Below, in pieces: positions 7,480 through 53,078 of a DNA stretch of 64,000 bases (the first letter of the stretch is position 1; each line of letters starts with the position of its first letter). The DNA lies in assembly GCA_003518055.1 (NCBI GenBank), contig DOZJ01000003.1, positions 2,046-66,045 of the forward strand. The letters are read 5' to 3'. The DNA is from Candidatus Falkowbacteria bacterium. GTDB taxonomy: Bacteria; Patescibacteriota; Patescibacteriia; UBA11705. The position numbers and the translations under genes were made by a program. Under the pieces are notes generated by a model, which saw only the letters and a list, made by a program, of their open reading frames with translations, did no database searches and was not told the DNA's origin.

Positions 7480-7730
7480 AAAGTGTCATACTACCCGCCT
7501 ACGTTACACCCTCAGCATGACAAGAGGGTTATGCTTCCCGCCTACGTTAAAACTCCGGCGGGCAGGCGAGAGCCCTGCCTACCGGCAGGCAGGCTCAGCA
7601 TGACAAGGAATTTGGGATTATGCTTCAAGAGCCTTAGTATGACAAGGAGTTTTGGGATTATATTTTCCGCCTACGTTAAAACTCCGGCGGGCCGGCAGCC
7701 TCGGTATGACAAAACGAGAAACTCCAGATA
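7480..7730. repeat. Composite intergenic repeat cluster
   Basis: A 26-nt exact direct repeat CCGCCTACGTTAAAACTCCGGCGGGC occurs at 7538-7563 and 7667-7692. CATGACAAG(A/G)G-type and TTTGGGATTAT sub-repeats are also present, plus a GC hairpin CCTGCC-taccggca-GGCAGG near 7574-7593. Confidence 0.8.
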
Positions 7731-7811
7731 ACAAAAATCGGAATGATTCAAAAAAAAGGAAAGTAAAAATAAACAAGGTCATTAAACAAAACAAATATCC
7801 CCCAAGAATGG

Positions 7812-11744: not shown

Positions 11745-12023
11745 TCACTTCGCATCAGGTTGGAATTTCCGGTACTTAAAGTATTGGCCAAACAAGATGA
11801 CGCAGAAGATAATACCAAGGCCGTCCGGAATGATCAAGAACCAGGCTTCGATCACGATTGAGTAGATGATGCGGCTGATATAGACCAAGGGTGGCAGGAT
11901 TGTCATGAAGTAACTCAGACCGGCGCGTTTGTCGTGTTTGTTTTTCCTGATTTGGCTGGGTAGGCCAATAACAATCATAATGATGGCCAAAAGCATGGTT
12001 GAAGTTCCGAAGATTTCCTGCAT
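11745..12023 (-). CDS. Small 3-TM membrane protein, possibly PQ-loop/SemiSWEET-like
   Basis: 92 aa with three hydrophobic helices and an LPSQI (PQ-like) motif in TM1. ATG at 12023 is preceded by AGGAGGA. Confidence 0.4.
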   Translation of the reverse strand: MQEIFGTSTMLLAIIMIVIGLPSQIRKNKHDKRAGLSYFMTILPPLVYISRIIYSIVIEAWFLIIPDGLGIIFCVILFGQYFKYRKFQPDAK

Positions 12024-12192
12024 GGTGTCCTCCTGATTGTGACACATAATTATATCATAATAATTAATATTTGTCAATGTTTTGTTTAGATTTAGCCTAA
12101 TATTTAATAATTATCCGAGTTGACGATAAATTTTTTCTCCAGTAAATTATATTAGCGGAGAGTAACCATAACAATTGGAAAGTGAGAGGGGG

Positions 12193-18494: not shown

Positions 18495-18835
18495 TCGTGT
18501 TGGTGGGGTAACAATAACTACCGAAGTTTGGCGGTCGGATGTTGGTTTTTTACAAAAATTAGACAGGGGTAACTGGAATGGCGGAAGTAAAGAGTAAAGA
18601 GCGAATAATAAAAATGGCGTAACTGTAACTACGGAATTAACTGTAACTACGGAAGTTTGGCAAGTCGGTTGGGTTTTTTACAAAAGTATGGCAGCAACAA
18701 TAACTACCCACCTACGCTCTTACTGTGTAGAAAGCTACGGCGCCTGCCTGCCGGTAGGCAGGGGCGCGGCGGAAGTTTGGCGGATGGGGAGGCAAAAGTT
18801 TGGCTATAACAATGAAAGTTTGATGATTTTTTGTA
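18495..18835. repeat. Intergenic repeat cluster (GTAACTGTAACTACGGAAGTTTGGC family). Includes a ~130-nt unit duplicated at 45376-45505
   Basis: Multiple copies of (G)TAACTGTAACTACGGAA(G/T)T, TTTTTACAAAA and GGAAGTTTGGCGG. Positions 18651-18728 are identical over 78 nt to 45376-45453. GC hairpin at CCTGCCTGCCGGTAGGCAGG. Confidence 0.85.
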
Positions 18836-23304: not shown

Positions 23305-23513
23305 TTAAACTCGGAAATATTGGCTGGAATATTGGTCTTTTTTTATTTTAGCGATGTTTTTATCCACTTGATGATAAAACGCCGGATAATGCTGCCTGAC
23401 AATCATGCGGCCGCGGTATTTTTGATAATATGGCGGTTTTTGGATGTGGGCAATTTCATGAGCGAGGGTTCTGAGTAAAGAATTGATGCTTTTTGGTTTG
23501 TTAAATATAATTT
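23305..23513 (-). pseudogene. Truncated 3' fragment of the HExxH (SprT/DUF45-like) gene found intact at 31002..31400
   Basis: About 190 nt (roughly 23312-23500) are near-identical to 31010-31200. The minus-strand frame reads ...NKPKSINSLLRTLAHEIAHIQKPPYYQKYRGRMIVRQHYPAFYHQVDKNIAKIKKDQYSSQYFRV*. There is a stop and no start codon upstream. Confidence 0.7.
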
Positions 23514-23693: not shown

Positions 23694-26600
23694 ATGATTC
23701 ATATGAAAAAAACAAACAGGCGATCGCGTTCGAATCATAATTTGTTGATCGCGTTTTTAATGGTTTTTATTCTTGGCACAACAGGGTATCTAACTTTGAT
23801 AAAACCTTTGGCGGTTAAAGCCGGGACATCGCCGCTTCTTATCAGTGAGGTGAAGTTTACGGGTGAAGTTGGCGGGAATTATGTTGAATTGTATAACCGC
23901 TCTGGCAGTGCCCTGTCAACGGAAGAAAATGTAGGCGTTCAATACAAGTTTCCCAGCGGCGAGTGGACTAATTTACACGTGGCATTCAGTAATGAATCAA
24001 TCCCAGCCAGTGGATTTGTTTTGTTTGGAACAGCGGGCGGTGACTTAGCTTTTGCCGATGAGGCCGCGTTTAATACCGCTATGGCCGCGAATAATAATTC
24101 CATTAACGGACTTAGTTTACGTTTGTGCGCTATATTAAGCAGTTGTGTCGATGGTAATTTGCTTGATGTCGTGGGTTTTGGTTCAAGCTCCACCACTGAA
24201 GGAACCGCAATCAGCCTCACAGATTGGGACCCGAGCAAAAGTTTTGAACGTAAGGCGATTTTTGATTCGACGGTTGGCGCTATGATTGCCGGTGGCGAGG
24301 ATGAAACGGCCGGAAATGGTTTTGATTCCGATGATAATAATTGGGATTTTGTGATGCAATCGACGGGCAATCCGCAAAATTTATCCAGCGCGGTTGAATC
24401 TTTGGATAACGCGGTATTTGAAGATGTTGTTCCCTTTATAGATCATGGACAGGTTTTCAGTTATCATGATAATGCGGATTTGTATTTGTTTGCCGCCATC
24501 TATGATGATAGTAATATTGCAACCACAGGAGCAAAAATATTTTATCGTGTCGGGACCAGCGGTGTTTTTACACAGGCTGACTCAACCAAAACCGTTGGGG
24601 CGTATGATCTGACAGGGTCTGCCTGGTATGCTTTTGTTATTCCCCAAGCAAGTTTGCAAAGCGCTGTTTCCGGGGGCGGAGTAGTCCAGTATTATCTTCA
24701 GGTGACCGATGGCGAAAATACAGCAACAATGCCGGATTACAATCCCAGCACCACGCCATTTAATATTGGCGTGACGGATGACTATGCCGGAGTTAAGTCA
24801 TTTTCCGGGGTGATAACCGATAGTCAGTTGAATTTTGTAAGGGCTTTGGTGCTTATAGAGAATTCAGGGTTTTATGCTGTTTCAAGCGCTGAGAATGGGG
24901 CTTACAGTTTCAGCAGTTTGCCAACTTCATATGAACCTGATGGGGCTTATCGGGTGATAATGGTGGCGCCAAATTATAGCTCTGCAATGGTAAGCGGCAT
25001 GAATGGATCTACGACTGTGAACGCGCAACTGCCGTTGTCATATGGGGATTTCGGTGGCGGAGACTTTGTTGGTCCTTATGTCAACTATACCGCTCCGAAC
25101 GCGGAAATGTTTGGAGCCCCGGTGGCGATATGTAATTTAAATACATCCCCGGAATCTCTGCCTGCCGGAGTAAATTTTTGTTCACCTATAATGGTCGGTT
25201 TTTCTGAAGCAATGAATAGCGGTACGGTTAATACGACAAATGTGAAACTGTACAATTTTACGACCAGCGCTTATGTTGACAATTTAGGGATAACAGCTAC
25301 AGCCCAAGATAATGAGTTTCAGGTTTTTTCCACCACTCCCCTGTCCGTCAATACGACATACGCTTTGATTTTAACCACGGATGTTCGAGATCAAGCGGGA
25401 AATGCTTTGGTGGGAAATCGAAGTGACGGTAGTTATGAAATTACTTTTACGACGGGAGGGGCGGCTTTTACCGGTGGTGGTGGTCAAACCTTCGGTTCCG
25501 GTCAGTTCCAGCCACCGTTTGTGCGAACGGTCAGTCCGAATTCAGGATCTTTTAATATCGCCATGAACGCCAATGTGTTGGTTGATTTTACGACGGCCGT
25601 AAACGTTGAAAGCGCCAACTTGGCTCGGGTTAATTTGGTCGATTTGGATTCGTCTGAGGTTGTGAGCTTGACTCGCACCTACAGCAACGATAAAACAAAA
25701 ATTATTTTAAATCCGAATTCAACTTTATCAGCTAATCAAGACTATGAAATTCGAGTTGCGGGCTCTTTTGAAAGTAGTGTCGGAGTGACGTTGGGAGATC
25801 CGCAAAACAGTCAGAATACGGATGACTACGTTTTCTTCCGCTCGTCGTTTACCACCGGTTCAACTTTAGATTCAACCGGACCGAGAGTTTTGGGCACGCT
25901 TCCGGCATCAGCTCAGACTGATGTGGCTGTGGGTTTGGGTTCGATTGAGATTGGCGTAAGCGAATCTCTTGATGCGGCGACAGTTAATACGTCAAATGTC
26001 ACCTTTAAACGAGGGAGCACGAATATTGCCGCCGATATCGAGTACGATGAAGCGTCTAAAACAATTCGATTGTTCCCTTCCAGCGCGTTGACGGCCAATG
26101 CCAGTCATACTGTAGCCGTCAAAACCGATGTGACTGATATCAATGGCAATGCTTTTAACAGTGATAATGACGGTACAAATGGTGAAGTTGATGATATTTA
26201 TACTTTTCAATTCACGACTTCCAGTACAATTGAAACAACCGCTCCGACGGTAACGAATGTCCGGTGCGATGATTATCAGTGTGTCGTGACATACAGTGAA
26301 GCGATGAATCGAGTGACAGTGACAGATACAACCGATTGGGTTGATAGTGTGGGAAAATGGGAAACCAGCGTCTTGAATAGGCTTAATTATAGTATTTCCG
26401 TTGATAAAGGGGCTGGATTGGCTACCGTGGACATAACAGAAGCGACTTTTAAATATGATGGTAATACCAATAGCGTAATTATATCCAATTTAAGGTTATA
26501 TGAAGATGTGGTTGATCTTAACAATCCGGTTCCATTAACTTTGTCGGTTTATAATGCGGCCGGCCCGGCTGATGGCGTGAGAGATATTGTCGGAAATGTC

Positions 26601-29600
26601 ATTGCCGCTTCAATCAGTATTAGCGGTACAGTTGAATCTAGCGCTCAAACCCAAGGTTTCATCGGGCCGGGCGCGACCGGGTTTGGCACGTCAGGCGTGA
26701 GCGATTTTGGAATGCATAGCGCGGCTACCATGGGCGAGAAACCAATTGGAGTTTTTCCGATGAATTCACTGGCCGGTGTAACCTCTCGCTATTTTGTTGA
26801 TTTGCCTGTGACCACGGTTATTCCGAACGGTGGAAAAATTGAATTAACATTCCCCAATGGATTTGATATTACAAATGCGGTGATTGATACCAACAGTCCG
26901 ATGAATAATGATATATCTCGCGGTTCTTCCACCATGACTTTGTCTTGCGTGGGAACTCAAGCAACGAGAACCATTACCTGTACGACTACCGGTGCTTCTG
27001 ATGCCAATGATTATTTATCTTTTGAATTAAAAACTATAATTAATAGTTCTATTCCCAAAGATTTCAACACTTCAGGTTATACGGTTGATGTTAAAACCAA
27101 GTCGGCTGATGGTTTGACTCTGTTGGAATCAATGACGACCATGCCGTTTTTCGTCACCGCGGCCGGATCCAATTCTATCACGGTCAAAGTTTATGCCGGC
27201 GGTCAGCTCGATGCCACCACCGGTACGGATGATATTGATGATGTAACCATGAATTTGTTTGTCGGTTCCCCCATGACCGGTCCCATGGATCAAACGATTA
27301 CTTTTACTAACGGCTATGCGACAACAACGATCAGTAATTTACCCGCCGGCGAATACTTTGTCTTTACCGAGCCATCAATGACAATTGGCGCCAACGAATA
27401 TGTCGGGGTGTCACCGGAGCAATTTTCACTAAATAACAACGTTACCAAGTCATTTTCGTTGAGTAAAATGGATAATTCAACGGCGGCGCCGCTGACAGTC
27501 AAGATTACCGGGGCCTTTGGCGAGACTGAAGATATTGATATTTTCGCCGGTAGTTCCAAGGGCTTTGTGGTCAAAACAATCAGTGATATCGGGACCGTAA
27601 CAAATCAGTCTTATACATTATATTTGCCTTACAACAGCGATTGGAGTATCGGTCTCGGGCCGGCAATGCCGAAAGGCGCAATCAGCGGTCAAGTCGCCAT
27701 GCCCGATTGGATGCCGCCGAAAAATAAAATGGTTCGAGTGACCGGCGTGGGCGAGACAGTCGCTTTGACCAATATGGAAACGCAGGCTGATGTTACCAGT
27801 GCTGGAGTCTCATTTACGGTGGCCTCTGCCGATTATCAAATTAACGGTTCGGTGGTTGACGGCAATGATCAAGGAATCGCTAACGCGGAGCTGTGGGCTT
27901 ACCAACCAATGGGTTTTGGCGGCAGCGGTAATAACACTCGAGCGACAACCGGCGGCAACTTCTCATTGAAGGTAGCGGAGTATGGAACGTACAAAGTAGG
28001 CGCCTTTTTACCTGGTATTCCCCAATCACCGGAATTAACATTGGAGGTAAAAGTTAACACCGGCGCCATTGATGGTAACGCCTCAGCGGATGTTTATCTA
28101 AACGGGACATTGATAACCGCTGGTAGTCCGTTTAAAATAAAATTAAGGAAAGCTGATTACACCATATCGGGTAAAGTGACGGATTCCAGCAACAATCCAA
28201 TGCAATACGCGCCGATTTGGGCCGAGGAATCCACCACGAAACAGACGGTTAACGCCATGACCGATTCCAGCGGAAATTATGTGCTTTATGTCGGTAATGG
28301 TACTTGGGTTGTCAGATCGGCGGTGCCTTTCGGTTCCAATATTTGCGGCAGTCTGACTAAAACGGTGACAATTTCCAGCGCATCCAAATCCGGTCAAAAT
28401 TTGCAACCATCATCAAGCACTTGTTACACTTTGAGCGGAACCGTGACTATTGGCGGATCGGTTGTTACCGGCGCCCCGGTGTTTATCGATGAATGGTCAG
28501 GGACGCTGGCGAGCGGTAATCCAATCGGGGTTTTTAGAGACTCGCGAACAGATTCCGCAGGACAATATTCGACACGAATTTCGAACGGCACATATCGCGT
28601 TGGGACTTGGTCAGAGGATTATGGCGAGCGGGCTATTTTAGTCACGGTTAATGGCCAGGATTCAACGGCAAATCATATCACTGTAGAGGTGGCTGATTTA
28701 AAAACATTGACCGTTAATTTTACCGGTGGCGCCAGCGACATGACTGGTTTCATGGAGGTGCGGAACGCCACAAGCACTGAACGCCGCGGTCGTCCGATCA
28801 ATGATTTATCGAATGCTGAAATTATTCAAGTTAGCGCCGGGACTTATAATGTATTTGTTCATATTGACGGTGTGGGTGACTTTAGCCAAAGCAGCGTTGA
28901 TTTAACCGCTAACGCCGTTATTACATTCAATGTGTCATCAGTGACTCGATTTGGCATTACAGGCACGGTCGAGGATGTTGATGGCAATCCGATCGAAAGC
29001 GCTTGGGTTTGGGTTCATGATCCAAATAGCAATTATAGAACAGGAGCAGCGACCAACTCGTCTGGCGCTTATACTTTGAGTGTAAAGGAAGGTTCAGGGA
29101 TGAAAATCGGTGTTGATAAACCGAATTATGTCTCCCCTGCCCCCAGAACATTAAACGTCACTGAAGCGGCTACGATAGATTTTACCGACGCTGAGAATGC
29201 CGCTTTGACCGCGACGAATTATGTGGTTTCTGGTACGGTGACGGGAACGAATTTGACTGAGGGTTTTGTGTGGGCGGAAACCGCTACGGGTGGTTGGTCA
29301 GGTAGTCCGATTGATTTGGACGGAACCTTTTCATTGCCGGTGACAAACGGAACGTGGACACTCAAAGGTATTGCTCCGCTTCACGCGCAAACGACCTATA
29401 GTGGTTCGATAACGATTAATAATGACAGTGTAACCGGTTTAAGCTTTCCTTTGACGGTTGATGTCACGAAGACAGTCAAAACGGCCATAAATTCGATTAC
29501 TCCTTCTGTCGGTGGTGTCATTCAAGACGATACGGTAGGGGCAAAAGTCGTAGTACCACCGAATGCTTTAGGCAGCGGATCGACGTCAGGAAATATGACA

Positions 29601-30647
29601 ATGCAAAAATCATATACGGCTCCGGCTACTGGCTTATACGCGCCGTTATCAGGTGAGTCAGTCAATATATCAGTTACCGATAACAATGGTCAGCAGATTA
29701 CCAATTTAAACGATGACGTGGAGTTGACTCTAGATTATTTGACTACAAGTTTACCGAGCGGAATTTCCGAAGGCGATTTGATTCCGGCTTATTGGGATAC
29801 TACAACAAATCAATGGATCCCGCTCAGCGGAGTGCAGAATTCGTCAGACAACTCATTTACAGCTCAAACCAATCACTTTACCATTTTTGGTGTGGTTTAT
29901 TCCCCGCTGTCAGTAACGACAGCATCTGGCAGCAGTCGATCCAGCCAGGAGGCGTCACAAGAGCTTGTTGATTCGATAACCGGTGATGGCTCTGGTAGTT
30001 CGACATCGATTCCGGCGACTGAAGAAACGACAGAGCCGGAAACCGCAGAACCGGAGTTAATACCCGATGAGTCAGTAACGGAAACACCTGAGACGTCCGT
30101 GGAAGCTGAAGAAGAGATGGTGAAAACATATACCCCGGATTTACCGGCAGAGCGTGATTTGGATAATGAACGAGACGCCATAAGTCGATATATCAGTTTG
30201 GAGAAAGAATTACCAACTGGTGATGACTGGAAGGTTGTCCAATTCATCAGCTACGGAAGTACGTCTGTGACTGAAGTTTTGACGACTCGGGAGCGTTCTG
30301 GTTTAGTATCTGATTATAAGGATTTGTACGGCCATTTACCGGTGACCGAGACTGATTGGAAGGATATAGATTTGATTGCTCGCGGTGAACAACCGACCCG
30401 GATTTTGACGCTTGAGGCATCAGCTATCAAGGAATTCGTAATGATTTATGGTCGATTGGTCAATTTTCAGACAGCAGCAGATGAGGATTTTATTCATATG
30501 GTGGCTTATCGCTATCGAGTGGAACAACGCGATTTGGCCAGGGAAAATACGGCTTTGGGCATATTTTCTAAGGCTTATGGTCATCTGCCCAATTCAACCC
30601 ACTTTTGGTCGGTATTGAGAGCTATATCCTATGCTAACGTGGAATAA
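23694..30647 (+). CDS. Giant surface protein (2317 aa): LTD, Ig-like modules, carboxypeptidase-regulatory-like beta-sandwich repeats and a conserved C-terminal repeat module
   Basis: N-terminal TM/signal. LTD motifs are present (LLISEVKFTG...NYVELYNRSG...SFERK...GNGFDSDDNNWDF). Four modules carry the pattern xVxFSEAMxxxTVNxxNV. Five or more repeats look like Y(T/V)(I/L)SG(K/T)VTD...G(N/A)Y(V/T)L.V..G.Y. An acidic Thr/Glu/Pro linker precedes a C-terminal domain shared with 21051..23210. Confidence 0.85.
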   Translation: MIHMKKTNRRSRSNHNLLIAFLMVFILGTTGYLTLIKPLAVKAGTSPLLISEVKFTGEVGGNYVELYNRSGSALSTEENVGVQYKFPSGEWTNLHVAFSNESIPASGFVLFGTAGGDLAFADEAAFNTAMAANNNSINGLSLRLCAILSSCVDGNLLDVVGFGSSSTTEGTAISLTDWDPSKSFERKAIFDSTVGAMIAGGEDETAGNGFDSDDNNWDFVMQSTGNPQNLSSAVESLDNAVFEDVVPFIDHGQVFSYHDNADLYLFAAIYDDSNIATTGAKIFYRVGTSGVFTQADSTKTVGAYDLTGSAWYAFVIPQASLQSAVSGGGVVQYYLQVTDGENTATMPDYNPSTTPFNIGVTDDYAGVKSFSGVITDSQLNFVRALVLIENSGFYAVSSAENGAYSFSSLPTSYEPDGAYRVIMVAPNYSSAMVSGMNGSTTVNAQLPLSYGDFGGGDFVGPYVNYTAPNAEMFGAPVAICNLNTSPESLPAGVNFCSPIMVGFSEAMNSGTVNTTNVKLYNFTTSAYVDNLGITATAQDNEFQVFSTTPLSVNTTYALILTTDVRDQAGNALVGNRSDGSYEITFTTGGAAFTGGGGQTFGSGQFQPPFVRTVSPNSGSFNIAMNANVLVDFTTAVNVESANLARVNLVDLDSSEVVSLTRTYSNDKTKIILNPNSTLSANQDYEIRVAGSFESSVGVTLGDPQNSQNTDDYVFFRSSFTTGSTLDSTGPRVLGTLPASAQTDVAVGLGSIEIGVSESLDAATVNTSNVTFKRGSTNIAADIEYDEASKTIRLFPSSALTANASHTVAVKTDVTDINGNAFNSDNDGTNGEVDDIYTFQFTTSSTIETTAPTVTNVRCDDYQCVVTYSEAMNRVTVTDTTDWVDSVGKWETSVLNRLNYSISVDKGAGLATVDITEATFKYDGNTNSVIISNLRLYEDVVDLNNPVPLTLSVYNAAGPADGVRDIVGNVIAASISISGTVESSAQTQGFIGPGATGFGTSGVSDFGMHSAATMGEKPIGVFPMNSLAGVTSRYFVDLPVTTVIPNGGKIELTFPNGFDITNAVIDTNSPMNNDISRGSSTMTLSCVGTQATRTITCTTTGASDANDYLSFELKTIINSSIPKDFNTSGYTVDVKTKSADGLTLLESMTTMPFFVTAAGSNSITVKVYAGGQLDATTGTDDIDDVTMNLFVGSPMTGPMDQTITFTNGYATTTISNLPAGEYFVFTEPSMTIGANEYVGVSPEQFSLNNNVTKSFSLSKMDNSTAAPLTVKITGAFGETEDIDIFAGSSKGFVVKTISDIGTVTNQSYTLYLPYNSDWSIGLGPAMPKGAISGQVAMPDWMPPKNKMVRVTGVGETVALTNMETQADVTSAGVSFTVASADYQINGSVVDGNDQGIANAELWAYQPMGFGGSGNNTRATTGGNFSLKVAEYGTYKVGAFLPGIPQSPELTLEVKVNTGAIDGNASADVYLNGTLITAGSPFKIKLRKADYTISGKVTDSSNNPMQYAPIWAEESTTKQTVNAMTDSSGNYVLYVGNGTWVVRSAVPFGSNICGSLTKTVTISSASKSGQNLQPSSSTCYTLSGTVTIGGSVVTGAPVFIDEWSGTLASGNPIGVFRDSRTDSAGQYSTRISNGTYRVGTWSEDYGERAILVTVNGQDSTANHITVEVADLKTLTVNFTGGASDMTGFMEVRNATSTERRGRPINDLSNAEIIQVSAGTYNVFVHIDGVGDFSQSSVDLTANAVITFNVSSVTRFGITGTVEDVDGNPIESAWVWVHDPNSNYRTGAATNSSGAYTLSVKEGSGMKIGVDKPNYVSPAPRTLNVTEAATIDFTDAENAALTATNYVVSGTVTGTNLTEGFVWAETATGGWSGSPIDLDGTFSLPVTNGTWTLKGIAPLHAQTTYSGSITINNDSVTGLSFPLTVDVTKTVKTAINSITPSVGGVIQDDTVGAKVVVPPNALGSGSTSGNMTMQKSYTAPATGLYAPLSGESVNISVTDNNGQQITNLNDDVELTLDYLTTSLPSGISEGDLIPAYWDTTTNQWIPLSGVQNSSDNSFTAQTNHFTIFGVVYSPLSVTTASGSSRSSQEASQELVDSITGDGSGSSTSIPATEETTEPETAEPELIPDESVTETPETSVEAEEEMVKTYTPDLPAERDLDNERDAISRYISLEKELPTGDDWKVVQFISYGSTSVTEVLTTRERSGLVSDYKDLYGHLPVTETDWKDIDLIARGEQPTRILTLEASAIKEFVMIYGRLVNFQTAADEDFIHMVAYRYRVEQRDLARENTALGIFSKAYGHLPNSTHFWSVLRAISYANVE

Positions 30648-31001: not shown

Positions 31002-31400
31002 TCACGAGCGAAAATATTGGCTGAAGTACGGATCTTTTTTTATTTTGATGATGTTTTTATCGACTTGATGATAAAACGCCGGATAATGCTGTCTGACAAT
31101 CATGCGGCCGCGGTATTTTTGATAATATGGCGGTTTTTGGATGTGGGCAATTTCATGAGCGAGGGTTCTGAGTAAAGTATTAATGCTTTTGGGTTTATTG
31201 GTCTTTGGTGTCAGGACATCAAGCGCGATAGTCTTTTTTTGGAAATTGATATACCCCAAAATTAATCTCTTGCCGGTTGCTGATTGACGGCGGCTGATGA
31301 TTCGTAGTTTGTATTCATCATAGCCAAAAAGTTTTCTCACGATTTGGTGAAAAATCAACTCGACAAATTCAAGGTAGCGGTCATTTTTGTAGGCTGGCAT
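31002..31400 (-). CDS. Putative zinc metalloprotease-like protein (HExxH; SprT/DUF45-like)
   Basis: 132 aa with an LAHEIAHI motif. Its C-terminal half is duplicated as a fragment at 23305-23513. Confidence 0.55.
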   Translation of the reverse strand: MPAYKNDRYLEFVELIFHQIVRKLFGYDEYKLRIISRRQSATGKRLILGYINFQKKTIALDVLTPKTNKPKSINTLLRTLAHEIAHIQKPPYYQKYRGRMIVRQHYPAFYHQVDKNIIKIKKDPYFSQYFRS

Positions 31401-31449
31401 AGATTAAACAGAAATTAGGGGGAAATTAAACCCCGCTCAAGTTGGATCT

Positions 31450-31515
31450 GGCGGGGTAACTCTAACTACAAAAGTTTGGCGGGTTGGGTTAGTTTTTACA
31501 AAAGTTTGGCGAGGT
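31450..31515. repeat. Intergenic repeat copy (GGGGTAACTCTAACTACAAAAGTTTGGCGGG / TTTTTACAAAAGTTTGGCG)
   Basis: Matches the dispersed repeat core by direct reading. Confidence 0.75.
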
Positions 31516-34362: not shown

Positions 34363-34365
34363 AAA

Positions 34366-34582
34366 CTACGAAAGTTAGATTGTCAGATGTGAATTAGGGT
34401 GTAACTATAACTACGGAAGTTTGGCGGGGTAACTGTAACGGCGGAAGTTTGGCGGGGTAACTGTAACTACGGAAGTTAGGCGGGTGTAACTGTAACTACG
34501 GAAGTAACTATAACTACGGAAGTTAGGCGGGGGTAACTGTAACTACGGAAGTAACTGTAACTACGGAAGTTAGGCGGGGTAA
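34366..34582. repeat. Tandem array of about 7 units (21-30 nt) of the dispersed repeat GGGGTAACTGTAACTACGGAAGTT(T/A)GGCGG
   Basis: Units abut one another with no unique spacers. Each contains the internal duplication GTAACT-GTAACTA. Confidence 0.9.
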
Positions 34583-34583
34583 G

Positions 34584-34976
34584 TTAAGGTTTATTTAAGT
34601 TTGGATTTATTATACGATAAATGTTAACATTTTTTTGATTAAAGTGAACTAATAAACCAAGTTTTATTCCCGACAATTTTAAATATTCTTTGACTTGATA
34701 AAAATGCTTTTGGGAAATTAGGGATGAGGCTTTAATTTCTATAATAATACAATCTTCAATCAGAAAGTCAATCTTACGATAAGTAATCTCACGACCGTAT
34801 AATTGAAGTGGAATTTTGGATTCTTTTACGTAATTTATTGTTTTTTGTTTGAGTAGTGATTCAAGTAGTTGACAATATGATGCTTCCCTGAGACCGTAAC
34901 CGAGTTGTTTGTATATTTGATAAAATAGTCCGTTCAAGACATATGAAAGATCCTCAAAATAAAAATGAGTCTGCAT
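34584..34976 (-). CDS. GxxExxY family protein (PD-(D/E)XK nuclease fold)
   Basis: 130 aa. Contains GYGLREASY (G-x-x-E-x-x-Y) and a downstream block IDFLIEDCIIIEIKA that resembles the D...(D/E)xK core. Confidence 0.7.
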   Translation of the reverse strand: MQTHFYFEDLSYVLNGLFYQIYKQLGYGLREASYCQLLESLLKQKTINYVKESKIPLQLYGREITYRKIDFLIEDCIIIEIKASSLISQKHFYQVKEYLKLSGIKLGLLVHFNQKNVNIYRIINPNLNKP

Positions 34977-35105
34977 ATGGTTTATTATACCATATGGTGA
35001 TAAGTATGGTAAGATAACGGCTGATAAAATAATTATTGTTTGTGTGCGTTAACAGTTAAAAAATACTTATTTTAGCTAAACTTCCGTAGTTATCGTTATA
35101 CCCTA

Positions 35106-35134
35106 TTGACAAATTATAATAAGTATGATATAAT
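35106..35134 (+). promoter_or_regulatory. Perfect sigma70-type promoter P1 (TTGACA-N17-TGaTATAAT)
   Basis: TTGACA at 35106-35111, a 17-nt spacer, an extended -10 TG, and TATAAT at 35129-35134. Confidence 0.7.
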
Positions 35135-35295
35135 GGCTAATCAAGCTGAGAAATTCATTGGCACATTGGCATTCATATATAAGACATTTGGATCTTTTTG
35201 TTGAGGGGTAACTGTAACTACGGAAGTATTACTACTAACGTTTTTACATTCATATAGTATATCGCTTGTCGTGATATTATATATAAAGACACCTC

Positions 35296-35324
35296 TTGAC
35301 AAAATGATTTAGATGTGATATAAT
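35296..35324 (+). promoter_or_regulatory. Perfect sigma70-type promoter P2 (TTGACA-N17-TGaTATAAT), upstream of the GC-rich CDS
   Basis: TTGACA at 35296-35301, a 17-nt spacer, an extended -10 TG, and TATAAT at 35319-35324. No intervening terminator with a T-run was seen before 35683. Confidence 0.7.
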
Positions 35325-35682
35325 GTTAAGCATGAACTTTGATATAACCATAACTACCAGACTACGCTGAAGCTACGTCTGGCACAGCGAAAGTTTAGCA
35401 GCAGCAAGAAGGCAGCAACTATTATTGAATTTGAGTTTGTGTCAACCTGAACTTGTTTCAGGTTCTACAAAATCAGATTCAATGATGGTTGTGAGATGTC
35501 TCCAACCTGTCCGGTGTAAATGGTCAAGACCAAAGAACTTCTTAAGCTTCACTCTGGTCCCCACATATCAAAACCGGGACCTATGAGCCGATTAGCGGCT
35601 GACAAAAGTGAAGTCGAAGATCAGCGGTCAAGACCAACCAAATCGTTTTTGGGGCACAGCCCCGCTTCATGGAGGAATCCAG

Positions 35683-36768
35683 ATGACCGAGCAGAGCACC
35701 CGCATCTCCACCCTCGTCGACTACGTCAACAACCACGGCACGTCGATCCGGCCCAACGTCATGGTCGAGTCCGATCTCGTCACCGGGCGCCCCTTCCCCG
35801 CGCGTTTCGCGCGGGTGCTGGTGGCGACCCAGCAGCTGTTCAACAACATCGACGTGAAGATGCTGCAGGAGCAGATTTTCAGGCTCAACGGCGAGCAGCG
35901 CGACGCCGGCAAGCCGATGCTCGACGGCAGCCACATCACGCTCAGCGAGGCGCTCGCGAACGCCGCGGCGGTCATCAAGTACCGCGACGCCATCGACCCG
36001 CTCCTGATCAACCGCGACGCGCGACTCACCGGCTTCCAGGTGTCCGAGCTGTCGCTCGACCCGACGGAGCTGGAGAAGCACCTCGCGGCAGGCGCCGGCA
36101 CGATCGACATGACCCGTGTCGCGGCCTGGTCCAAGAAGCAGAGCCTCTACGAGGCCGCGCTCGCGGCCCGCGCGGCGATCTTCGACGACCTGCGCAGCCG
36201 CGACGTCACCCCCGAGGAGCCCAACGGCTGGAGCCTGGCCCAGTGCCAGACGTCCGACTTCTGGGCGGCCTACGAGGAGGCGATCAAGGCCTTCGCGGTC
36301 GAGGTCGGCTTCGAGTGGGACGGCACGCCGACCACGCCGACTCCGCCGGTCTACCCCGTCACGGTCGTCCGCGTGTTCCACCGGGACGACATGTCGACCG
36401 GCTTCCGGTACATCCCCATGGTGGCGGACGGTCGGCACAAGGCGGCCGTGCAGATCCTCTGGGAGCAGCACGTCGAGTGGTCCCAGGAGCGCCAGAAGCC
36501 GCCGACGTTCTACCGCCGGTTCGTGTCGGAGGTCTGCGTCCCCCTGAACCTGCTGCAGGACATGCTCCGCAGCGAGGGCGTCAAGGACGACCGGCCGACG
36601 GTCGAGGCGAAGGTCTCGAGCCTCGCCGCGTCCCTGTCCGCCATTAGGGACAACCGGAACGCCGAGTACGAGGGCGGCCGGCGCAACCGCGACGAGGACA
36701 ACGACCGCCGCGGCAGCCGGGGCAAGCGCGGCAACACCCGCCAGAACCACCCCTACTCCCGCGGCTGA
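35683..36768 (+). CDS. Foreign-composition hypothetical protein (361 aa) with an Arg/Gly/Asn/Asp-rich C-terminal tail
   Basis: ATG at 35683 lies 6 nt after GGAGGA. 58 of the first 60 codons end in G or C, which marks this as the true frame. The overlapping ORFs in other frames are Arg/Ala/Pro/Gly-rich shadows. It has an internal Pro/Thr linker (GTPTTPTPPVYP) and the tail NRNAEYEGGRRNRDEDNDRRGSRGKRGNTRQNHPYSRG. I recognised no catalytic motif. Confidence 0.8.
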   Translation: MTEQSTRISTLVDYVNNHGTSIRPNVMVESDLVTGRPFPARFARVLVATQQLFNNIDVKMLQEQIFRLNGEQRDAGKPMLDGSHITLSEALANAAAVIKYRDAIDPLLINRDARLTGFQVSELSLDPTELEKHLAAGAGTIDMTRVAAWSKKQSLYEAALAARAAIFDDLRSRDVTPEEPNGWSLAQCQTSDFWAAYEEAIKAFAVEVGFEWDGTPTTPTPPVYPVTVVRVFHRDDMSTGFRYIPMVADGRHKAAVQILWEQHVEWSQERQKPPTFYRRFVSEVCVPLNLLQDMLRSEGVKDDRPTVEAKVSSLAASLSAIRDNRNAEYEGGRRNRDEDNDRRGSRGKRGNTRQNHPYSRG

Positions 36769-36842
36769 CCGCAACCAACCCACCTCCCGATCTTTCCGTC
36801 TCGAATCTGAGGCATCACAAGCGAAAAACTCTACGAACATAA

Positions 36843-36874
36843 AGACCTAGCATTGCCTGGGTCTTTTTCGTTTT
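36843..36874 (+). terminator. Rho-independent terminator downstream of the GC-rich CDS
   Basis: AGACCT-agcattgcct-GGGTCT (6 bp including one G-U pair) followed by TTTTCGTTTT. Confidence 0.55.
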
Positions 36875-37051
36875 AAAAGTGTGGGCTGTTTAGTTATCAA
36901 TTCACATCTGTCAGTAGACAATGATATGTTTGCTATTTTTGTAAAGCCGTTAGTTTCTAGTTGTCAGAAATAGTAGGTTGCTTCGTCGTTACTACGTACT
37001 CCTCGCAACATAAAAAGGATCAAAAAAATAAAAAAAGATGTTGGTTGATTC

Positions 37052-37080: not shown

Positions 37081-37155
37081 AAATTTAATACAGTTAATAA
37101 AAGGAGGCATCTATCCCCTGCTCGAGGAGGCGCAGGGAGCCAAGGAGGTGACCTA

Positions 37156-37743
37156 ATGTCAAATAAAGACACGGCTGGTGGTTTTTTCCGGGTCACCGAT
37201 GACTTTTGGGCCAATTTGCTCCTTAGGGAGATGAAGTTTCACGCCGGAGACAACGGTTTTGATGTGGCGGAAATATTCATCGACAGAGATCGCCGGCTGG
37301 TGCTAATGGTGCCGAGATTGCCGTCAGATATCACCAAGTTGAATTTGATGGAGGTTGAGCGACTGATCGCCGAGCCTGATGATTTTGAGGAAATGGATGA
37401 CATGCCGTTTTCTCTTTCCGTTATCCGGTCTGCGGGATTGGTGTATTTCATCAAGTTTAATGTGGGTGAAATAAATGTCTCCGTATTGATGCCGGTTCCA
37501 TATTCTTTGTACAGTCAGGATTTTGACGGCTATGTCGGTTTCGTCAAGGTAAATAATGTAACATGGACTGACGCCAAAAACCTGGACCTAGATTCTTCGA
37601 AGTTTTCGGTTGTTTATCGAGATTATGTTTCGGGCTTCATGGAAATTTGCCTCGCGGTTGGCCGCGATGAACAAAATAAACCGATTCCGGTACTGCCATC
37701 GGTCACGATGAGCACTGACGGACGGAAATTTATAAGAGTATAA
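37156..37743 (+). CDS. Hypothetical protein (195 aa)
   Basis: ATG at 37156 follows AAGGAGGTGA, the full anti-SD complement. Hairpin terminator CAGACT/AGTCTG at 37746-37772. No recognisable motif. Confidence 0.6.
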   Translation: MSNKDTAGGFFRVTDDFWANLLLREMKFHAGDNGFDVAEIFIDRDRRLVLMVPRLPSDITKLNLMEVERLIAEPDDFEEMDDMPFSLSVIRSAGLVYFIKFNVGEINVSVLMPVPYSLYSQDFDGYVGFVKVNNVTWTDAKNLDLDSSKFSVVYRDYVSGFMEICLAVGRDEQNKPIPVLPSVTMSTDGRKFIRV

Positions 37744-37778: not shown

Positions 37779-37888
37779 ACTGTAACTGCGAAAGTATGGC
37801 CGTGGGGGCTACTTATACAAAATGAGTATAGTTAAAGTAAAAAGTGGAGGGAAAAGTTTTTACAAAAGTTTGGCGGGTGTAGCTGTAA
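37779..37888. repeat. Intergenic repeat copies (ACTGTAACTGCGAAAGTATGGCC ... TTTTTACAAAAGTTTGGCGGGTGTAGCTGTAA)
   Basis: Diverged members of the dispersed repeat family, read directly. Confidence 0.7.
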
Positions 37889-37892
37889 TAAA

Positions 37893-38349: not shown

Positions 38350-38448
38350 GAGTTTTTACAAAGTGGTTATAGTTTTTTACAAAAGTATAACAGCAACTAC
38401 GAAAGCTTGACGGTTAGTGGCAGGGTTTTACAAAAGGTTGGCGGGGCG
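38350..38448. repeat. Intergenic repeat copies (TTTTTACAAAGT..., TTTTTTACAAAAGTATAACAGCAACTACGAAAGCTTGAC, TTTTACAAAAGGTTGGCGGGG)
   Basis: Diverged members of the same repeat family, lying between two minus-strand genes. Confidence 0.7.
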
Positions 38449-44385: not shown

Positions 44386-45186
44386 TTGAACGACATTATG
44401 ATTGTATTTGCGGCGGTGGTCCCCCACCCGCCATTAATCATTCCCAGCTTGGGAAAAGATAATACAAAAAAATTGACTAAAACTCAAGAAGCTTTTGAAA
44501 TTTTAAAAAAAGAATTTGAGGCGGCTAAACCTGATACGGTTGTAATATTTTCACCGCATGGAGATATATATCCGGATGCGTTTACCATCAATACTTTGCC
44601 TGAATATGAGTTGAATTTTGAAGATTTCGGCGACTTTGAAACTCGGATGAATTTTGTCGGTGACCTAGGATTGATCAATCGATTCCGGGAACAAGTGGAA
44701 ACTACCCTACCGGTGGTGTTAAAATCAGAGTCGGTGCTTGATTATGGCGTGGGCATTCCATTGTATTCTCTCGCTCAGGCATATAAAAATTTCAAAATAA
44801 TGCCGATAAATTCTTCCTTACTTGACCTCGAACAGCATTTGAATTTTGGCGAGGAATTGAAAGAAGCGATATTTTCAAGTGAAAAAAAGGTGGCGATAAT
44901 CGCCTCAGCTGATTTGAGTCATCGGCTGTCAAAAAATGCTCCAGCCGGGTTTTCACCGAAAGCCAAGGATTTTGATAAAAAAATTATTCAGTATTTGAAA
45001 CAAAAAAAAGTAGATCAGATGATCCAATTCGATTCCCAGCTGCTCAAGGAGGCCGAAGAGTGCGGGTTGAGACCGATTATGATGTTGATGGGAGTGATTA
45101 GGAATATGAATTATGATTTTCAGGTTTTGAGTTATGAGTCGCCTTTTGGGGTGGGATATTTGGTGGGAGAGTGTTTGTTGAAGTAA
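44386..45186 (+). CDS. Class III extradiol dioxygenase (LigB/DODA-like) family protein
   Basis: Motifs seen: AAVVPHPPLIIP, FSPHGD and ASADLSHRL. The start is uncertain (TTG at 44386 or ATG at 44398). Confidence 0.6.
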   Translation: MNDIMIVFAAVVPHPPLIIPSLGKDNTKKLTKTQEAFEILKKEFEAAKPDTVVIFSPHGDIYPDAFTINTLPEYELNFEDFGDFETRMNFVGDLGLINRFREQVETTLPVVLKSESVLDYGVGIPLYSLAQAYKNFKIMPINSSLLDLEQHLNFGEELKEAIFSSEKKVAIIASADLSHRLSKNAPAGFSPKAKDFDKKIIQYLKQKKVDQMIQFDSQLLKEAEECGLRPIMMLMGVIRNMNYDFQVLSYESPFGVGYLVGECLLK

Positions 45187-45545
45187 CTGTAACTACGAAA
45201 GTTTGGCAGCAAGTAGATAGTTTTACGAAAATTAGGCGGGCGTAACTGTAACTACGGAATTAACTGTAACTACCCGCCTACGCTCTTACTTCCACCTACG
45301 CATAACGCTTATGCCTTCGCTAAAGCTATGGCATACAGGTCGGTGGACAGGGTGTAGAGCTACGGCGGGCGCGGCGGAAGTTTGGCAAGTCGGTTGGGTT
45401 TTTTACAAAAGTATGGCAGCAACAATAACTACCCACCTACGCTCTTACTGTGTGAGCTACGGCGCCTGCCTGCCGGTAGGCAGGGGCGCAGCGGAGGTTT
45501 GGCGGGGATTGGTTGCGTAGGGTTAATTCAGGGAAAAGAAAGGCG
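45181..45545. repeat. Intergenic repeat cluster that includes the second copy of the ~130-nt unit
   Basis: GTAACTGTAACTACGAAAGTTTGGCAGCAAG and GCGTAACTGTAACTACGGAATTAACTGTAACTAC (the latter also at 18618-18650). Positions 45376-45505 match 18651-18783. Confidence 0.85.
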
Positions 45546-50984: not shown

Positions 50985-53078
50985 ATGAGCAACGAACACA
51001 AATATTTTTGGGAAGAAGCAGTGGCCATTTTACGACGATTGCGGATTCGCACCAAACAAAAATATTTTGAACTTTGCAACATTGATAATCGATTTTCTCG
51101 AACCCCGGGATCTTTTTATCGTGACTGCTGGGTGGAAAAGGGTAAATGGCCCGGTTTCTTGGGATTCAAACCGTTTCGGACTGAGAAAACCAGTTACGTC
51201 ACGTGGGAAGAAGCAGCTGTCGCGGCCAGAAAATTGGGGTTTGCTACTGCGGATGATTATAAATTAGACTATGAAACAGATCCCAAATTGCACTCAAGCC
51301 CGCAAAAACTTTATAGATATGTATGGAAGAAAAATGGTGGCTGGCCCGGCTTTTTGGGTACAATCGGCAAAAAGAAACGAAAAAAATTTTACGCTACTTG
51401 GGCTGAAGCGTCAGCCGCTGCTCGGCGGTTAAAATTCAAAACCATTCGAGAGTATGTTAACGGTCGGAAACAAGATCCACGACTTCACTCTAAACCAAAC
51501 AAACTATATGCGGCTGAGTGGAAATCGAATGGCGGTTGGAAAGGATTTCTTGGAAATTCAGGCATAAGAAAACGACAGGATATTTATCCTACGTGGAATC
51601 TCGCTTCAGCTGCAGCCAAAAAACTGGGAATTAAACGAAGTGAAGATTATAGTAAAGTGTATAAAAAAGACCCCAAGCTGCCGGGCAACCCCAATCTCGC
51701 TTATGAGGATGTTTGGCAGAAGAATGGACGCTGGGCCGGATTCTTGGGGACAAGGACAAAACCTAATCCGGATGAAAAATACGCGACTTGGGAAGAAGCA
51801 TCGGCCGCTGCCAAAAAAATTGGGTTTATTTCGACTGATGATTATAACCAGCGATTTGCTGAAACTGATCCGAAATTGCCGGGAAAACCAAGTGACAAGT
51901 ATCGGAGTGTTTGGAAAAAAAACGGCCGTTGGATCGGTTACCTTGGTTTAAAAATGGTTTCACCCATCCGCGGTCATAAATATGTTACTTGGCATGAAGC
52001 ATCTAAGGCCGCTCAAAGATTAGGCATCAAAAATGGAATAGAATACAAACGTCGATACAAAAGTGATCCAAAGCTGCCGCTGAAGCCGGCCCAATTGTAT
52101 AAGATTGAATGGAAGAAGCGCGGCAGCATGGCTGGTTTTCTGGCACGAATATTTTCATATGTCAGATGGGAAGAAGCATCGGCCGCCGCTCGAAAATTGA
52201 ATATTCGGACCATCAAAGAATATCAGAAAAAACATTGTTTGGATCCACGATTGCCAAGCAATCCGGCCCATACTTACAAATCTGTCTGGGTGAAAAAAGG
52301 TCTTTGGCTGGGATTCCTCGGCAAAACTAAGGTGGAAAAATACGCTACTTGGGATGAGGCGGTGAAGGCGGTTAGACGATTAAGAATTACGTCATGCCGC
52401 GATTATCAAAATCGATACCGTTGTGACCCGAAGTTGCCGGTCAGACCATATATAAATTACAGAAACGTTTGGGTTTTGCTCGGTAAGTGGAGTGGTTTTA
52501 TCGGTCGGAAATCTCATTTTTATTCGACTTGGCAGGAAGCGTCAAAGGCCGCGATTGCTTTGGGCATCAAGACTCAAAAAGAGTACAAACAGAATTATTG
52601 GGATGATCCAAAATTACCAAGCACTCCAGATGTGGTTTATCAATCGTTGTGGAAAGTTAATGGCGGTTATTGGGGGTTTTTGGGTAAAACAAAGAAATAT
52701 CAATCTTGGTCAGAAGCGGCAAAAGCGGCGCGCAGTCTAAAAATCAGGAATAATCAAGAGTACAAAATAAAATACAAGTTGAATCCGAAATTACCGGCCT
52801 GTCCGGATCATTATTATAAAAATGATTGGAAAAGAAATGGCTGCTGGAACGGATTCCTCGGATTGACGCCAAAAAAATATTATGACACATGGATTGAAGC
52901 GTCGACTGCGACGATAACATTGGGAATTAAATATCAGCAAGAATATCGTCAACGATACAAACAAGATCCCCGGCTTCCGCCTAGCCCGGATTTAGTTTAC
53001 AAGGATGTCTGGGTTGATAACGGGCGCTGGCTGGGATTTCTCGGCCGGACAAATAGAATATTGAAAGCTCGCAAATAA
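50985..53078 (+). CDS. Tandem-repeat protein: 11 copies of a ~58-aa W-E-E-A...DPKLP...Y...W...G-W-x-G-F-L-G unit
   Basis: Eleven units each end in (W/Y)xGFLG-like sequence. Unit consensus: Y(A/V)TWEEAS(A/K)AA(R/K)KLGIK...EY...Y..DPKLP..P...Y...W..NG.W.GFLG. SD GGAGGAAGC precedes the ATG. Confidence 0.75.
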   Translation: MSNEHKYFWEEAVAILRRLRIRTKQKYFELCNIDNRFSRTPGSFYRDCWVEKGKWPGFLGFKPFRTEKTSYVTWEEAAVAARKLGFATADDYKLDYETDPKLHSSPQKLYRYVWKKNGGWPGFLGTIGKKKRKKFYATWAEASAAARRLKFKTIREYVNGRKQDPRLHSKPNKLYAAEWKSNGGWKGFLGNSGIRKRQDIYPTWNLASAAAKKLGIKRSEDYSKVYKKDPKLPGNPNLAYEDVWQKNGRWAGFLGTRTKPNPDEKYATWEEASAAAKKIGFISTDDYNQRFAETDPKLPGKPSDKYRSVWKKNGRWIGYLGLKMVSPIRGHKYVTWHEASKAAQRLGIKNGIEYKRRYKSDPKLPLKPAQLYKIEWKKRGSMAGFLARIFSYVRWEEASAAARKLNIRTIKEYQKKHCLDPRLPSNPAHTYKSVWVKKGLWLGFLGKTKVEKYATWDEAVKAVRRLRITSCRDYQNRYRCDPKLPVRPYINYRNVWVLLGKWSGFIGRKSHFYSTWQEASKAAIALGIKTQKEYKQNYWDDPKLPSTPDVVYQSLWKVNGGYWGFLGKTKKYQSWSEAAKAARSLKIRNNQEYKIKYKLNPKLPACPDHYYKNDWKRNGCWNGFLGLTPKKYYDTWIEASTATITLGIKYQQEYRQRYKQDPRLPPSPDLVYKDVWVDNGRWLGFLGRTNRILKARK

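Follow-up and report, generated by a model that had tools for sequence, protein, structure and literature searches.

The stretch 35073-35682 of the 64,000-nt window analysed here (the window being the whole piece of DNA, in whose numbering all positions are given) is very probably the promoter and the cis-acting 5' untranslated leader of a G+C-rich gene, which follows it directly and encodes an orphan protein of 361 aa. For the locus as a whole, the best explanation is one lineage-specific unit of tandem promoters, folded leader and G+C-rich orphan gene, which we regard as reasonably likely. The promoter and the structured leader form a new cis-regulatory element of an already known general kind. 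The host is an uncultured groundwater bacterium of the ABY1-type candidate phyla radiation (CPR), Candidatus Falkowbacteria. Short contigs identical to the window occur in groundwater metagenomes, and the neighbouring protein orf195 has 100% identity to an NCBI protein from a Candidatus Falkowbacteria metagenome-assembled genome. The window is a chromosome segment of ~42.5% G+C with housekeeping genes, including those for gltX, clpB, a penicillin-binding protein, priA and a class II aminoacyl-tRNA synthetase. Comparator loci were obtained by a gltX-anchored scan with one genome per species, and the following CPR relatives were retained.

L004, Falkowbacteria CG10_..._39_11, GluRS 75% and ClpB 86% identical to the window proteins
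L005, Falkowbacteria RIFOXYC2_FULL_36_12, GluRS 66% identical
L006, Kuenenbacteria, GluRS 61% identical
L007, Parcubacteria GW2011_GWA2_40_23, GluRS 63% identical
L008, L009 and L068, CPR-like metagenome-assembled genomes, GluRS 60-63% identical

The gene order M23 peptidase, gltX, nudix-tagA-clpB is preserved wherever the comparator loci reach far enough. In L004 the unit is complete between gltX and the downstream genes, with promoter P1, a ~60-nt block, a palindromic block, promoter P2, the leader, the coding sequence (CDS) and a terminator. From its leader onwards the order is a long hairpin, a multi-stem domain, a clamp hairpin, GGAGGA, the G+C-rich CDS, a hairpin in the 3' untranslated region (UTR) and the terminator. 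In the window the unit consists of the following features, all on the plus strand.

35106-35134, promoter P1, exact TTGACA-N14-TGA-TATAAT, predicted start near 35141; perfect in L004 at 9662-9634
35166-35329, HP0, predicted long hairpin of the P1 transcript, with 5' arm 35178-35208, 3' arm 35290-35322 and apex hairpin 35252-35282
35296-35324, promoter P2, exact TTGACA-N14-TGA-TATAAT, predicted start near 35331; perfect in L004 at 9517-9489
35415-35492, hairpin HP1, 34 bp with 5 G-U pairs; its lower 20-bp stem is conserved in sequence
35521-35636, multi-stem domain with outer stems TGGTC/GACCA and GACC/GGTC and closing stem GCTTCACT/AGTGAAGT
35556-35581, GGTCCC/GGGACC hairpin inside the multi-stem domain
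35586-35600, AGCCG/CGGCT hairpin inside the multi-stem domain
35650-35664 (stem 35651-35663), G+C clamp hairpin GGGGC-aca-GCCCC, 7 nt upstream of the Shine-Dalgarno sequence
35671-35676, Shine-Dalgarno sequence GGAGGA, 6 nt before the ATG at 35683; conserved in L004, L005, L006, L007, L009 and L068
35683-36768, orphan CDS, 361 aa, 69% G+C, with 0.65/0.45/0.97 G+C at codon positions 1/2/3 (GC1/2/3)
36798-36813, putative 3' UTR hairpin GTCTC/GAGGC, found by eye and without statistical support; L004 has GCCTC/GAGGC
36841-36876, intrinsic terminator, 10-bp stem and T-run; the L004 equivalent has a different sequence

To describe the leader we compare its fold in the window with that in L004. The 360 nt of the window leader counted from P2 fold with -119.7 kcal/mol (z = -5.8, dinucleotide shuffles), and the L004 leader folds with -105.2 kcal/mol (z = -6.7). 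All 63 pairs of the RNAalifold consensus form in both sequences and 18 of the 63 are changed on both sides, while sliding the 3' partner by 1-3 columns as a control gives 0-2 both-sided changes. With moderate confidence we class this region as a cis-acting structured leader, as it is stable, conserved with pair-preserving changes and contiguous with the CDS.

The apical stem of HP1, AACCTGAA/TTCAGGTT at 35444-35464, is replaced in L004 by a different sequence that still pairs. The hairpin folds with -38.5 kcal/mol on the sense strand versus -24.8 on the antisense strand in the window, and with -37.6 versus -30.5 in L004. Because HP1 is far stabler on the sense strand, we interpret it as an RNA rather than a DNA structure. 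L004 shares the multi-stem architecture, and both the outer stems and the AGCCG hairpin have pairs there that are changed on both sides. L004 (GGGG-ttaaat-CCCC) and L005 (GCGCCG-tat-CGGCGC) have an equivalent of the clamp hairpin, in both cases 6 nt upstream of GGAGGA.

A preliminary description of the stretch had named four hairpins in the leader. All four exist, with coordinates off by only 1-3 nt. Its proposal of a structured regulatory leader holds, given the z-scores in the two genomes, the compensatory changes, the sense-strand stability and the architecture kept in L004. Its other suggestion, that the region is an independent non-coding RNA partner of the gene, does not, as the leader runs into the ribosome binding site and the CDS without any boundary.

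A leader hairpin is present in seven of the eight CPR loci. It is long and sense-biased in L005 (~32 bp), L006 (~30 bp) and L068 (~27 bp), L004 likewise has a hairpin in the 27-34 bp range, and in L007 and L009 it is an interrupted hairpin of ~20 bp. The short leader of L008 is unstructured.

Such a leader would control how much there is of a very abundantly transcribed mRNA and how long it lasts. In size and quality, the long stems HP0 and HP1 resemble RNase III substrates and protective structures at the 5' end. Both contain a double-stranded RNA (dsRNA) stem of at least about 20 bp, the length expected of an RNase III substrate, and that of HP1 reaches 34 bp. A mechanism of the leader stems through RNase III or mRNA stability may apply, and we give it slightly less than an even chance. 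The basic-tailed protein encoded by the gene could plausibly bind to the multi-stem domain and so exert feedback.

Alternatively, the leader could be a sensor, i.e. a riboswitch or a protein-responsive translational operator that switches by refolding, and not a constitutive element for stability or processing. The conserved multi-stem domain with its invariant junctions TTCACTCTGGTCC and GACAAAnGTGAA, the clamp hairpin adjoining the Shine-Dalgarno sequence and the basic, possibly nucleic-acid-binding, tail of the protein speak for this. However, the Rfam search that the preliminary description had proposed identifies no family for the leader: at the gathering score the whole window has no match, and at E <= 10 the region 35000-36900 has only chance-level ones, among them microRNA-precursor models that score 23-26 bits on the long hairpin with thresholds of 95-97. 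The multi-stem domain is also missing in L005 and the other genera, whose leaders have only the long hairpin in common, and there is no conserved alternative pairing that would mask the Shine-Dalgarno sequence, the prediction giving no more than a weak TGGA/TCCA stem of 4 bp. A sensor is in our opinion unlikely, and we prefer a constitutive element for stability or processing.

The two promoters have a 17-nt spacer, the extended -10 TG motif and 12 of 12 hexamer positions, as expected of extended -10 promoters of the sigma-70 type. Allowing at most one mismatch, the pattern has six matches in the 64-kb window versus 0.04 expected from shuffles, and P1 and P2 are two of the three perfect ones. 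That P1 and P2 are exact and form an unusual pair, as had been noted at the outset, is thus borne out by the pattern scan and the shuffles, and both are perfect again in L004. In those CPR loci that have any perfect TTGACA-N14-TGnTATAAT, every such site lies ahead of the G+C-rich gene (two in L004, and also in L005, L006 and L009), and the remaining loci have a near-perfect extended -10 promoter ahead of it, so that the promoter is perfect or near-perfect in eight of eight.

The sole perfect promoter of L005 corresponds to P1 in the alignment, a ~260-nt leader and the G+C-rich CDS come directly after it, and P2 is absent or degenerate. Because the only promoter of the mRNA in L005 aligns with P1, we infer from the sequences that P1 may be the ancestral mRNA promoter. 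P2 would then be an added start point within the 3' arm of HP0. The two promoters point in the same direction, and both would give one mRNA that ends at the terminator 36841-36876. From the predicted starts, its leader would be ~540 nt long from P1 and ~350 nt from P2. A single mRNA from both promoters is presumably the product.

The third perfect promoter of the window, at 12049-12077 (-), is 87% similar to P1. It drives a hydrophobic protein of 92 aa without a Pfam match (ORF, open reading frame, 11745-12023, minus strand), followed by a terminator-like hairpin. A possible divergent promoter lies at ~35277-35302 (-), with TTGTCA, a spacing of 15-16 nt and TATAAT. It overlaps the -35 box of P2, is kept in L004 and would yield an RNA antisense to the P1 leader.

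According to our model, the transcript from P1 folds into HP0, a hairpin of ~33-35 bp with seven or eight G-U pairs. Its 5' arm is the block that the preliminary description had taken for a ~70-nt small RNA (sRNA) cassette, and its 3' arm is the P2 promoter sequence. HP0 has -56.4 kcal/mol on the sense strand versus -34.1 on the antisense strand in the window (z = -5.5), and -47.0 versus -34.0 in L004 (z = -6.4). Only in the window does it carry a repeat copy, inserted at about 35205-35240.

If P1 made an independent small RNA of ~70 nt, it would end at GGATCTTTTTGTT (35190-35202). There is a T-run at 35194-35199, and over the ~60 nt downstream of P1 the window and L004 agree in blocks to about 85%. 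The T-run, however, has no preceding stem, so that GGATCTTTTTGTT is not a terminator, and a terminator scan of 35140-35680 finds no site. The run is interrupted in L004 (GGATCATTTTG). The 65-nt unit after P1 does not fold alone (-6 kcal/mol, z = +1.4, unstructured), the conservation of the block is accounted for by its pairing with the P2 region, and the P1 equivalent of L005 is the only mRNA promoter there. The repeats that bracket the unit are not conserved. No conserved small ORF was found on either strand when the sequences of the P1-P2 interval were read. As a candidate sRNA gene of its own, the block was rejected on the terminator scan and on the comparison with relatives, in which it is no separable module (L005, HP0 pairing). 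With no terminator, no fold of its own, the pairing with the P2 region and the single promoter of L005, we read the alleged sRNA as the 5' arm of the leader hairpin HP0 and not as a separate RNA, and consider an independent sRNA very unlikely.

The repeats in question belong to a dispersed family, whose core ACTACGGAAGT occurs 15 times in the window versus 0.5 expected. Two copies lie beside P1, and the gene on the other side of the first copy is listed with them.

34584-34976, minus strand, gene of the GxxExxY / PD-(D/E)XK nuclease fold, very A+T-rich with GC3 0.22; absent from L004
35075-35105, minus strand, inverted repeat copy (GTAACTrTAACTACGGAAGTTTrGC), directly upstream of the P1 -35 box
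about 35205-35240, plus strand, direct repeat copy, an insertion relative to L004

The P1 unit was described as bracketed by inverted repeats, and the copies are indeed there, but the bracket is not conserved, the downstream copy being absent from L004. A repeat-associated outward promoter, the other idea put forward for P1, fails on the same absence and on the better pairing of the upstream copy with 34395-34425, which is its best match in the window (90% complementary over 31 nt). As these two inverted copies match best, they bracket the GxxExxY gene. The gene, lying between 31-nt inverted repeats, looks like an inserted cassette. Units of the dispersed repeat such as GGGGTAACTGTAACTACGGAAGTTTGGC, and variants such as TTTTTACAAAAGTTTGGCGGG, form tandem arrays with periods of 28 and 47 nt in intergenic spacers (34365-34582, 18495-18790, 31443-31511, 37855-37889, 38361-38443 and 45170-45510).

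The preliminary description mentioned the G+C-rich CDS only in passing. The richness is real, and it is the most unusual part of the locus, which had been given too little weight. The CDS has 69% G+C versus 26-40% in its flanks. Its GC3 of 0.97 compares with 0.442 +/- 0.059 in the 47 other ORFs of the window (maximum 0.58), and lies about 9 standard deviations above them. When all the CPR loci were scanned for G+C islands, L004, L006, L007, L009 and L068 each proved to have one at this position and in this orientation. In all eight genomes, including the window, the gene is located next to gltX and divergent from it. The complete genes at this position are given below.

Window, CDS of 361 aa, GC3 0.97, locus G+C 42.5%
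L004, CDS of 373 aa at 8068-9189 (-), GC3 0.85, locus G+C 40.5%
L007, CDS of 504 aa, GC3 0.95, locus G+C 39.9%
L009, CDS of 511 aa, GC3 0.95, locus G+C 39.5%
L006, CDS of 569 aa, GC3 0.80, locus G+C 41.2%
L068, CDS of 316 aa, GC3 0.78, locus G+C 43.7%
L008, CDS of 286 aa, GC3 0.64 (weaker enrichment), locus G+C 38.6%

Six of these seven, the window included, are clearly G+C-rich (GC3 0.78-0.97), and each complete gene is followed by a gene of ~200 aa. The L005 contig ends 57 nt into the CDS (L005 1-80), where 19 of 19 visible codons end in G or C. The end of a contig inside the gene suggests that G+C islands break assemblies.

The proteins fall into three families, A (window and L004), B (L007 and L009) and C (L006 and L068). 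The link between B and C is weak, with P = 0.005 in hhalign and E = 0.024 as the first non-self match of a hidden Markov model (HMM), and the downstream genes of B and C are homologous (1e-28). No sequence link was found between the downstream gene of family A and those of B and C. The 361-aa protein has a basic Arg/Gly-rich C-terminal tail, and of 1.84 billion representative proteins only the L004 protein P0002 (373 aa, 41% identity) is related to it. Word-indexed, exhaustive phmmer and profile searches, over about 15 billion proteins, returned only the window and L004 proteins, and a scan of JGI metagenomes only re-found the L004 lineage. Searches of Pfam, NCBIfam, PHROGs, PADLOC and PDB sequences with the G+C-rich and the downstream ~200-aa proteins gave nothing significant. 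The sole family hint comes from the N-terminus of family B, which weakly matches a helix-hairpin-helix. Against phage records and IMG/VR, families A, B and C gave only a 22-residue helix-hairpin-helix match, and no phage or plasmid record matched the locus in megablast. AlphaFold2 models have a predicted local distance difference test (pLDDT) score of 35 from the single sequence and 39 from the two-sequence alignment and are unusable. Between the window and L004 orthologues the nonsynonymous divergence (dN) is 0.59 and the synonymous divergence (dS) 0.85, with dN/dS about 0.7, i.e. the protein evolves fast.

The G+C content is raised at codon positions 1 and 2 as well, and declines through the leader and the 3' UTR. 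Translational optimisation is unlikely because GAG, AAG and CAG are used exclusively in the window CDS and the other window genes are not G+C-rich. Together, these features are consistent with a pressure that acts on the unit's nucleic acid, be it selection or biased conversion. The G+C richness is probably maintained within the lineage. A further step, that extreme G+C is an actively maintained property of one transcription unit across the whole CPR clade and so a new kind of compositional island, is possible, and we propose it tentatively. Literature searches for a precedent found nothing relevant, and we know of no case of persistent G+C richness of an orphan gene at a conserved CPR position.

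Two mechanisms could be responsible. The first would be selection on the nucleic acid, where the mRNA escapes an activity against A+U-rich RNA, perhaps one that its own basic-tailed product has, or else works in the high-G+C host cell of the presumed episymbiont. The second would be a localised hot spot of G+C-biased conversion or mutation, which would also drive the rapid protein evolution. If either is true, one specialised expression system would include the consensus promoters and the long leader stems as well.

A recent transfer of the CDS from a high-G+C donor, landing behind a resident promoter and leader, would account for the extreme step in composition (69% versus 26-40% G+C in the flanks and 42.5% in the window), for a codon usage like that of high-G+C bacteria, and for the inserted GxxExxY gene and dispersed repeats next door. 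However, the L004 orthologue with 41% amino acid identity is located behind the same leader and is also G+C-rich, and at such divergence synonymous sites should be saturated, so that a GC3 of 0.85-0.97 is no leftover. The corresponding position holds a G+C-rich gene in L005, L006, L007, L009 and L068 as well, and synteny of the locus extends over eight CPR genomes. Elsewhere, among about 15 billion proteins, the window protein has no homologue, and the three families lack a match in the phage and viral collections. There is no integrase, tRNA gene or target duplication, nor a mobility gene among the neighbours. Because the anomaly spans lineages with housekeeping proteins 60-86% identical and has no donor homologues, we consider a recent transfer highly improbable and retain maintenance within the lineage as the preferred reading.

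The coding strand is the plus strand. In a six-frame comparison the sense frame scores 249 bits and every other frame pair at most 133 bits, in agreement with the ribosome binding site and terminator. That the real gene is instead a 419-aa ORF on the minus strand (35581-36840), with coincidental plus-strand signals, has hardly any probability: gene callers on long contigs did choose the 419- or a 400-aa ORF (L086 2426-3685; L087 2426-3628), which is longer than the plus-strand ORF and open also in L004, L007 and L068, but a codon-aligned antisense frame opens automatically when TTA, CTA and TCA codons are missing, as at GC3 0.97, the codon-aligned antisense pair is outside the ten best frames (32% identity versus 41% in sense), the extreme G+C would, atypically, be that of codon position 1 (0.93-0.95), the plus strand is the one served by the promoters, the ribosome binding site and the terminator, and the antisense ORF is fragmented in L006 with its lower GC3. 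In public databases this gene family is probably wrongly annotated, missing or under-represented, and protein searches under-detect it.

Several points weigh against our explanation of the locus. The covariation comes from two sequences, and the structure was derived from those same two. The HP0 pairs are mostly invariant between the window and L004 and give weak covariation evidence, and the 3' arm would be conserved anyway, being a promoter. Start sites, read-through from P1 and processing are all predictions from sequence. The window CDS is no more structured than its synonymous shuffles (z = -0.5), and the L004 CDS has z = -4.0. Homology of family A to B or C was not significant in profile-profile and HMM tests, so we infer their equivalence from position and architecture only, and the checks of families B and C covered phage and viral collections only.

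Downstream of the unit, a hairpin with a GGAGG-containing loop is found at 37116-37137 (+), upstream of the co-conserved ~195-aa gene orf195 (37156-37743). It shows pair-preserving changes between the window (CCCTGC/GCAGGG) and L004 (ATCTGC/GCAGAT, about 7790-7811), and may be a second small regulatory RNA element.

Elsewhere in the window, a 191-nt direct repeat is found at 23312-23502 and 31009-31199 with 92% identity. The second copy overlaps the 3' part of a 132-aa ORF (31002-31400, minus strand), and the other is located upstream of the gene for a 2317-aa protein (23694-30647, plus strand) with Big_5 and CarboxypepD_reg domains, probably a giant surface protein. A near-identical 130-nt repeat at 18650-18783 and 45375-45505 is composed of a 79-nt segment with 100% and a 51-nt segment with 96% identity. 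It contains the G+C-rich palindrome GCCTGCCTGCCGGTAGGCAGGG, of which a third copy is found at 7573-7594. A 697-aa protein (50985-53078, plus strand) contains ten copies of the 'integrase repeat unit' (INT_rpt).

CPR bacteria are uncultured and their gene regulation is almost unknown. The locus is a concrete and conserved CPR example of a maximal-strength promoter combined with a leader that is predicted to be processed or stabilised, and a new structured RNA element that is open to modelling as more genomes are scanned. A GC3 of 0.8-0.97 in genomes of ~40% G+C, kept across genera at one position, contradicts the customary view of a compositional outlier as a recent transfer. The locus may also be a natural test of whether selection on nucleic acid or biased conversion drives local G+C in bacteria.

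Compared with known systems, the locus resembles horizontally acquired islands in its sharp local break in G+C and codon usage and in its orphan hypothetical gene. Unlike them, it has a fixed position in eight genomes, no mobility genes and no donor homologues, and it persists where synonymous sites should be saturated. Hot spots of GC-biased gene conversion are known mainly from mammals and birds, and the process has been proposed to act genome-wide in bacteria. The locus shares with such hot spots a very high local GC3 and accelerated protein evolution, with G+C raised at codon positions 1 and 2 and in the adjacent UTRs, but its enrichment ends at the boundaries of the transcription unit. 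We know of no bacterial single-gene hot spot of GC-biased conversion of this magnitude.

Tandem promoters with long stabilising 5' leaders are found in the S-layer genes slpA of Lactobacillus, in ompA of E. coli and in aprE of B. subtilis. The locus is of this type in its serial strong promoters, its long leader with a stable stem-loop, its strong Shine-Dalgarno sequence, its efficient terminator and the lack of an evident sensor of small molecules. It differs in that the stems are far longer (27-35 bp, nearly perfect), in that one of them contains a promoter, and in that a stabilising role is here predicted. The 361-aa protein has no signal peptide and belongs to no known family, unlike the proteins of highly expressed tandem-promoter genes. 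Hairpins processed by RNase III are found in the early mRNAs of phage T7, in the N leader of lambda and in the autoregulatory leaders of rnc and pnp in E. coli. As in these, predicted dsRNA stems of at least about 20 bp are located between the promoter and the ribosome binding site, and the structure is conserved while the sequence drifts.

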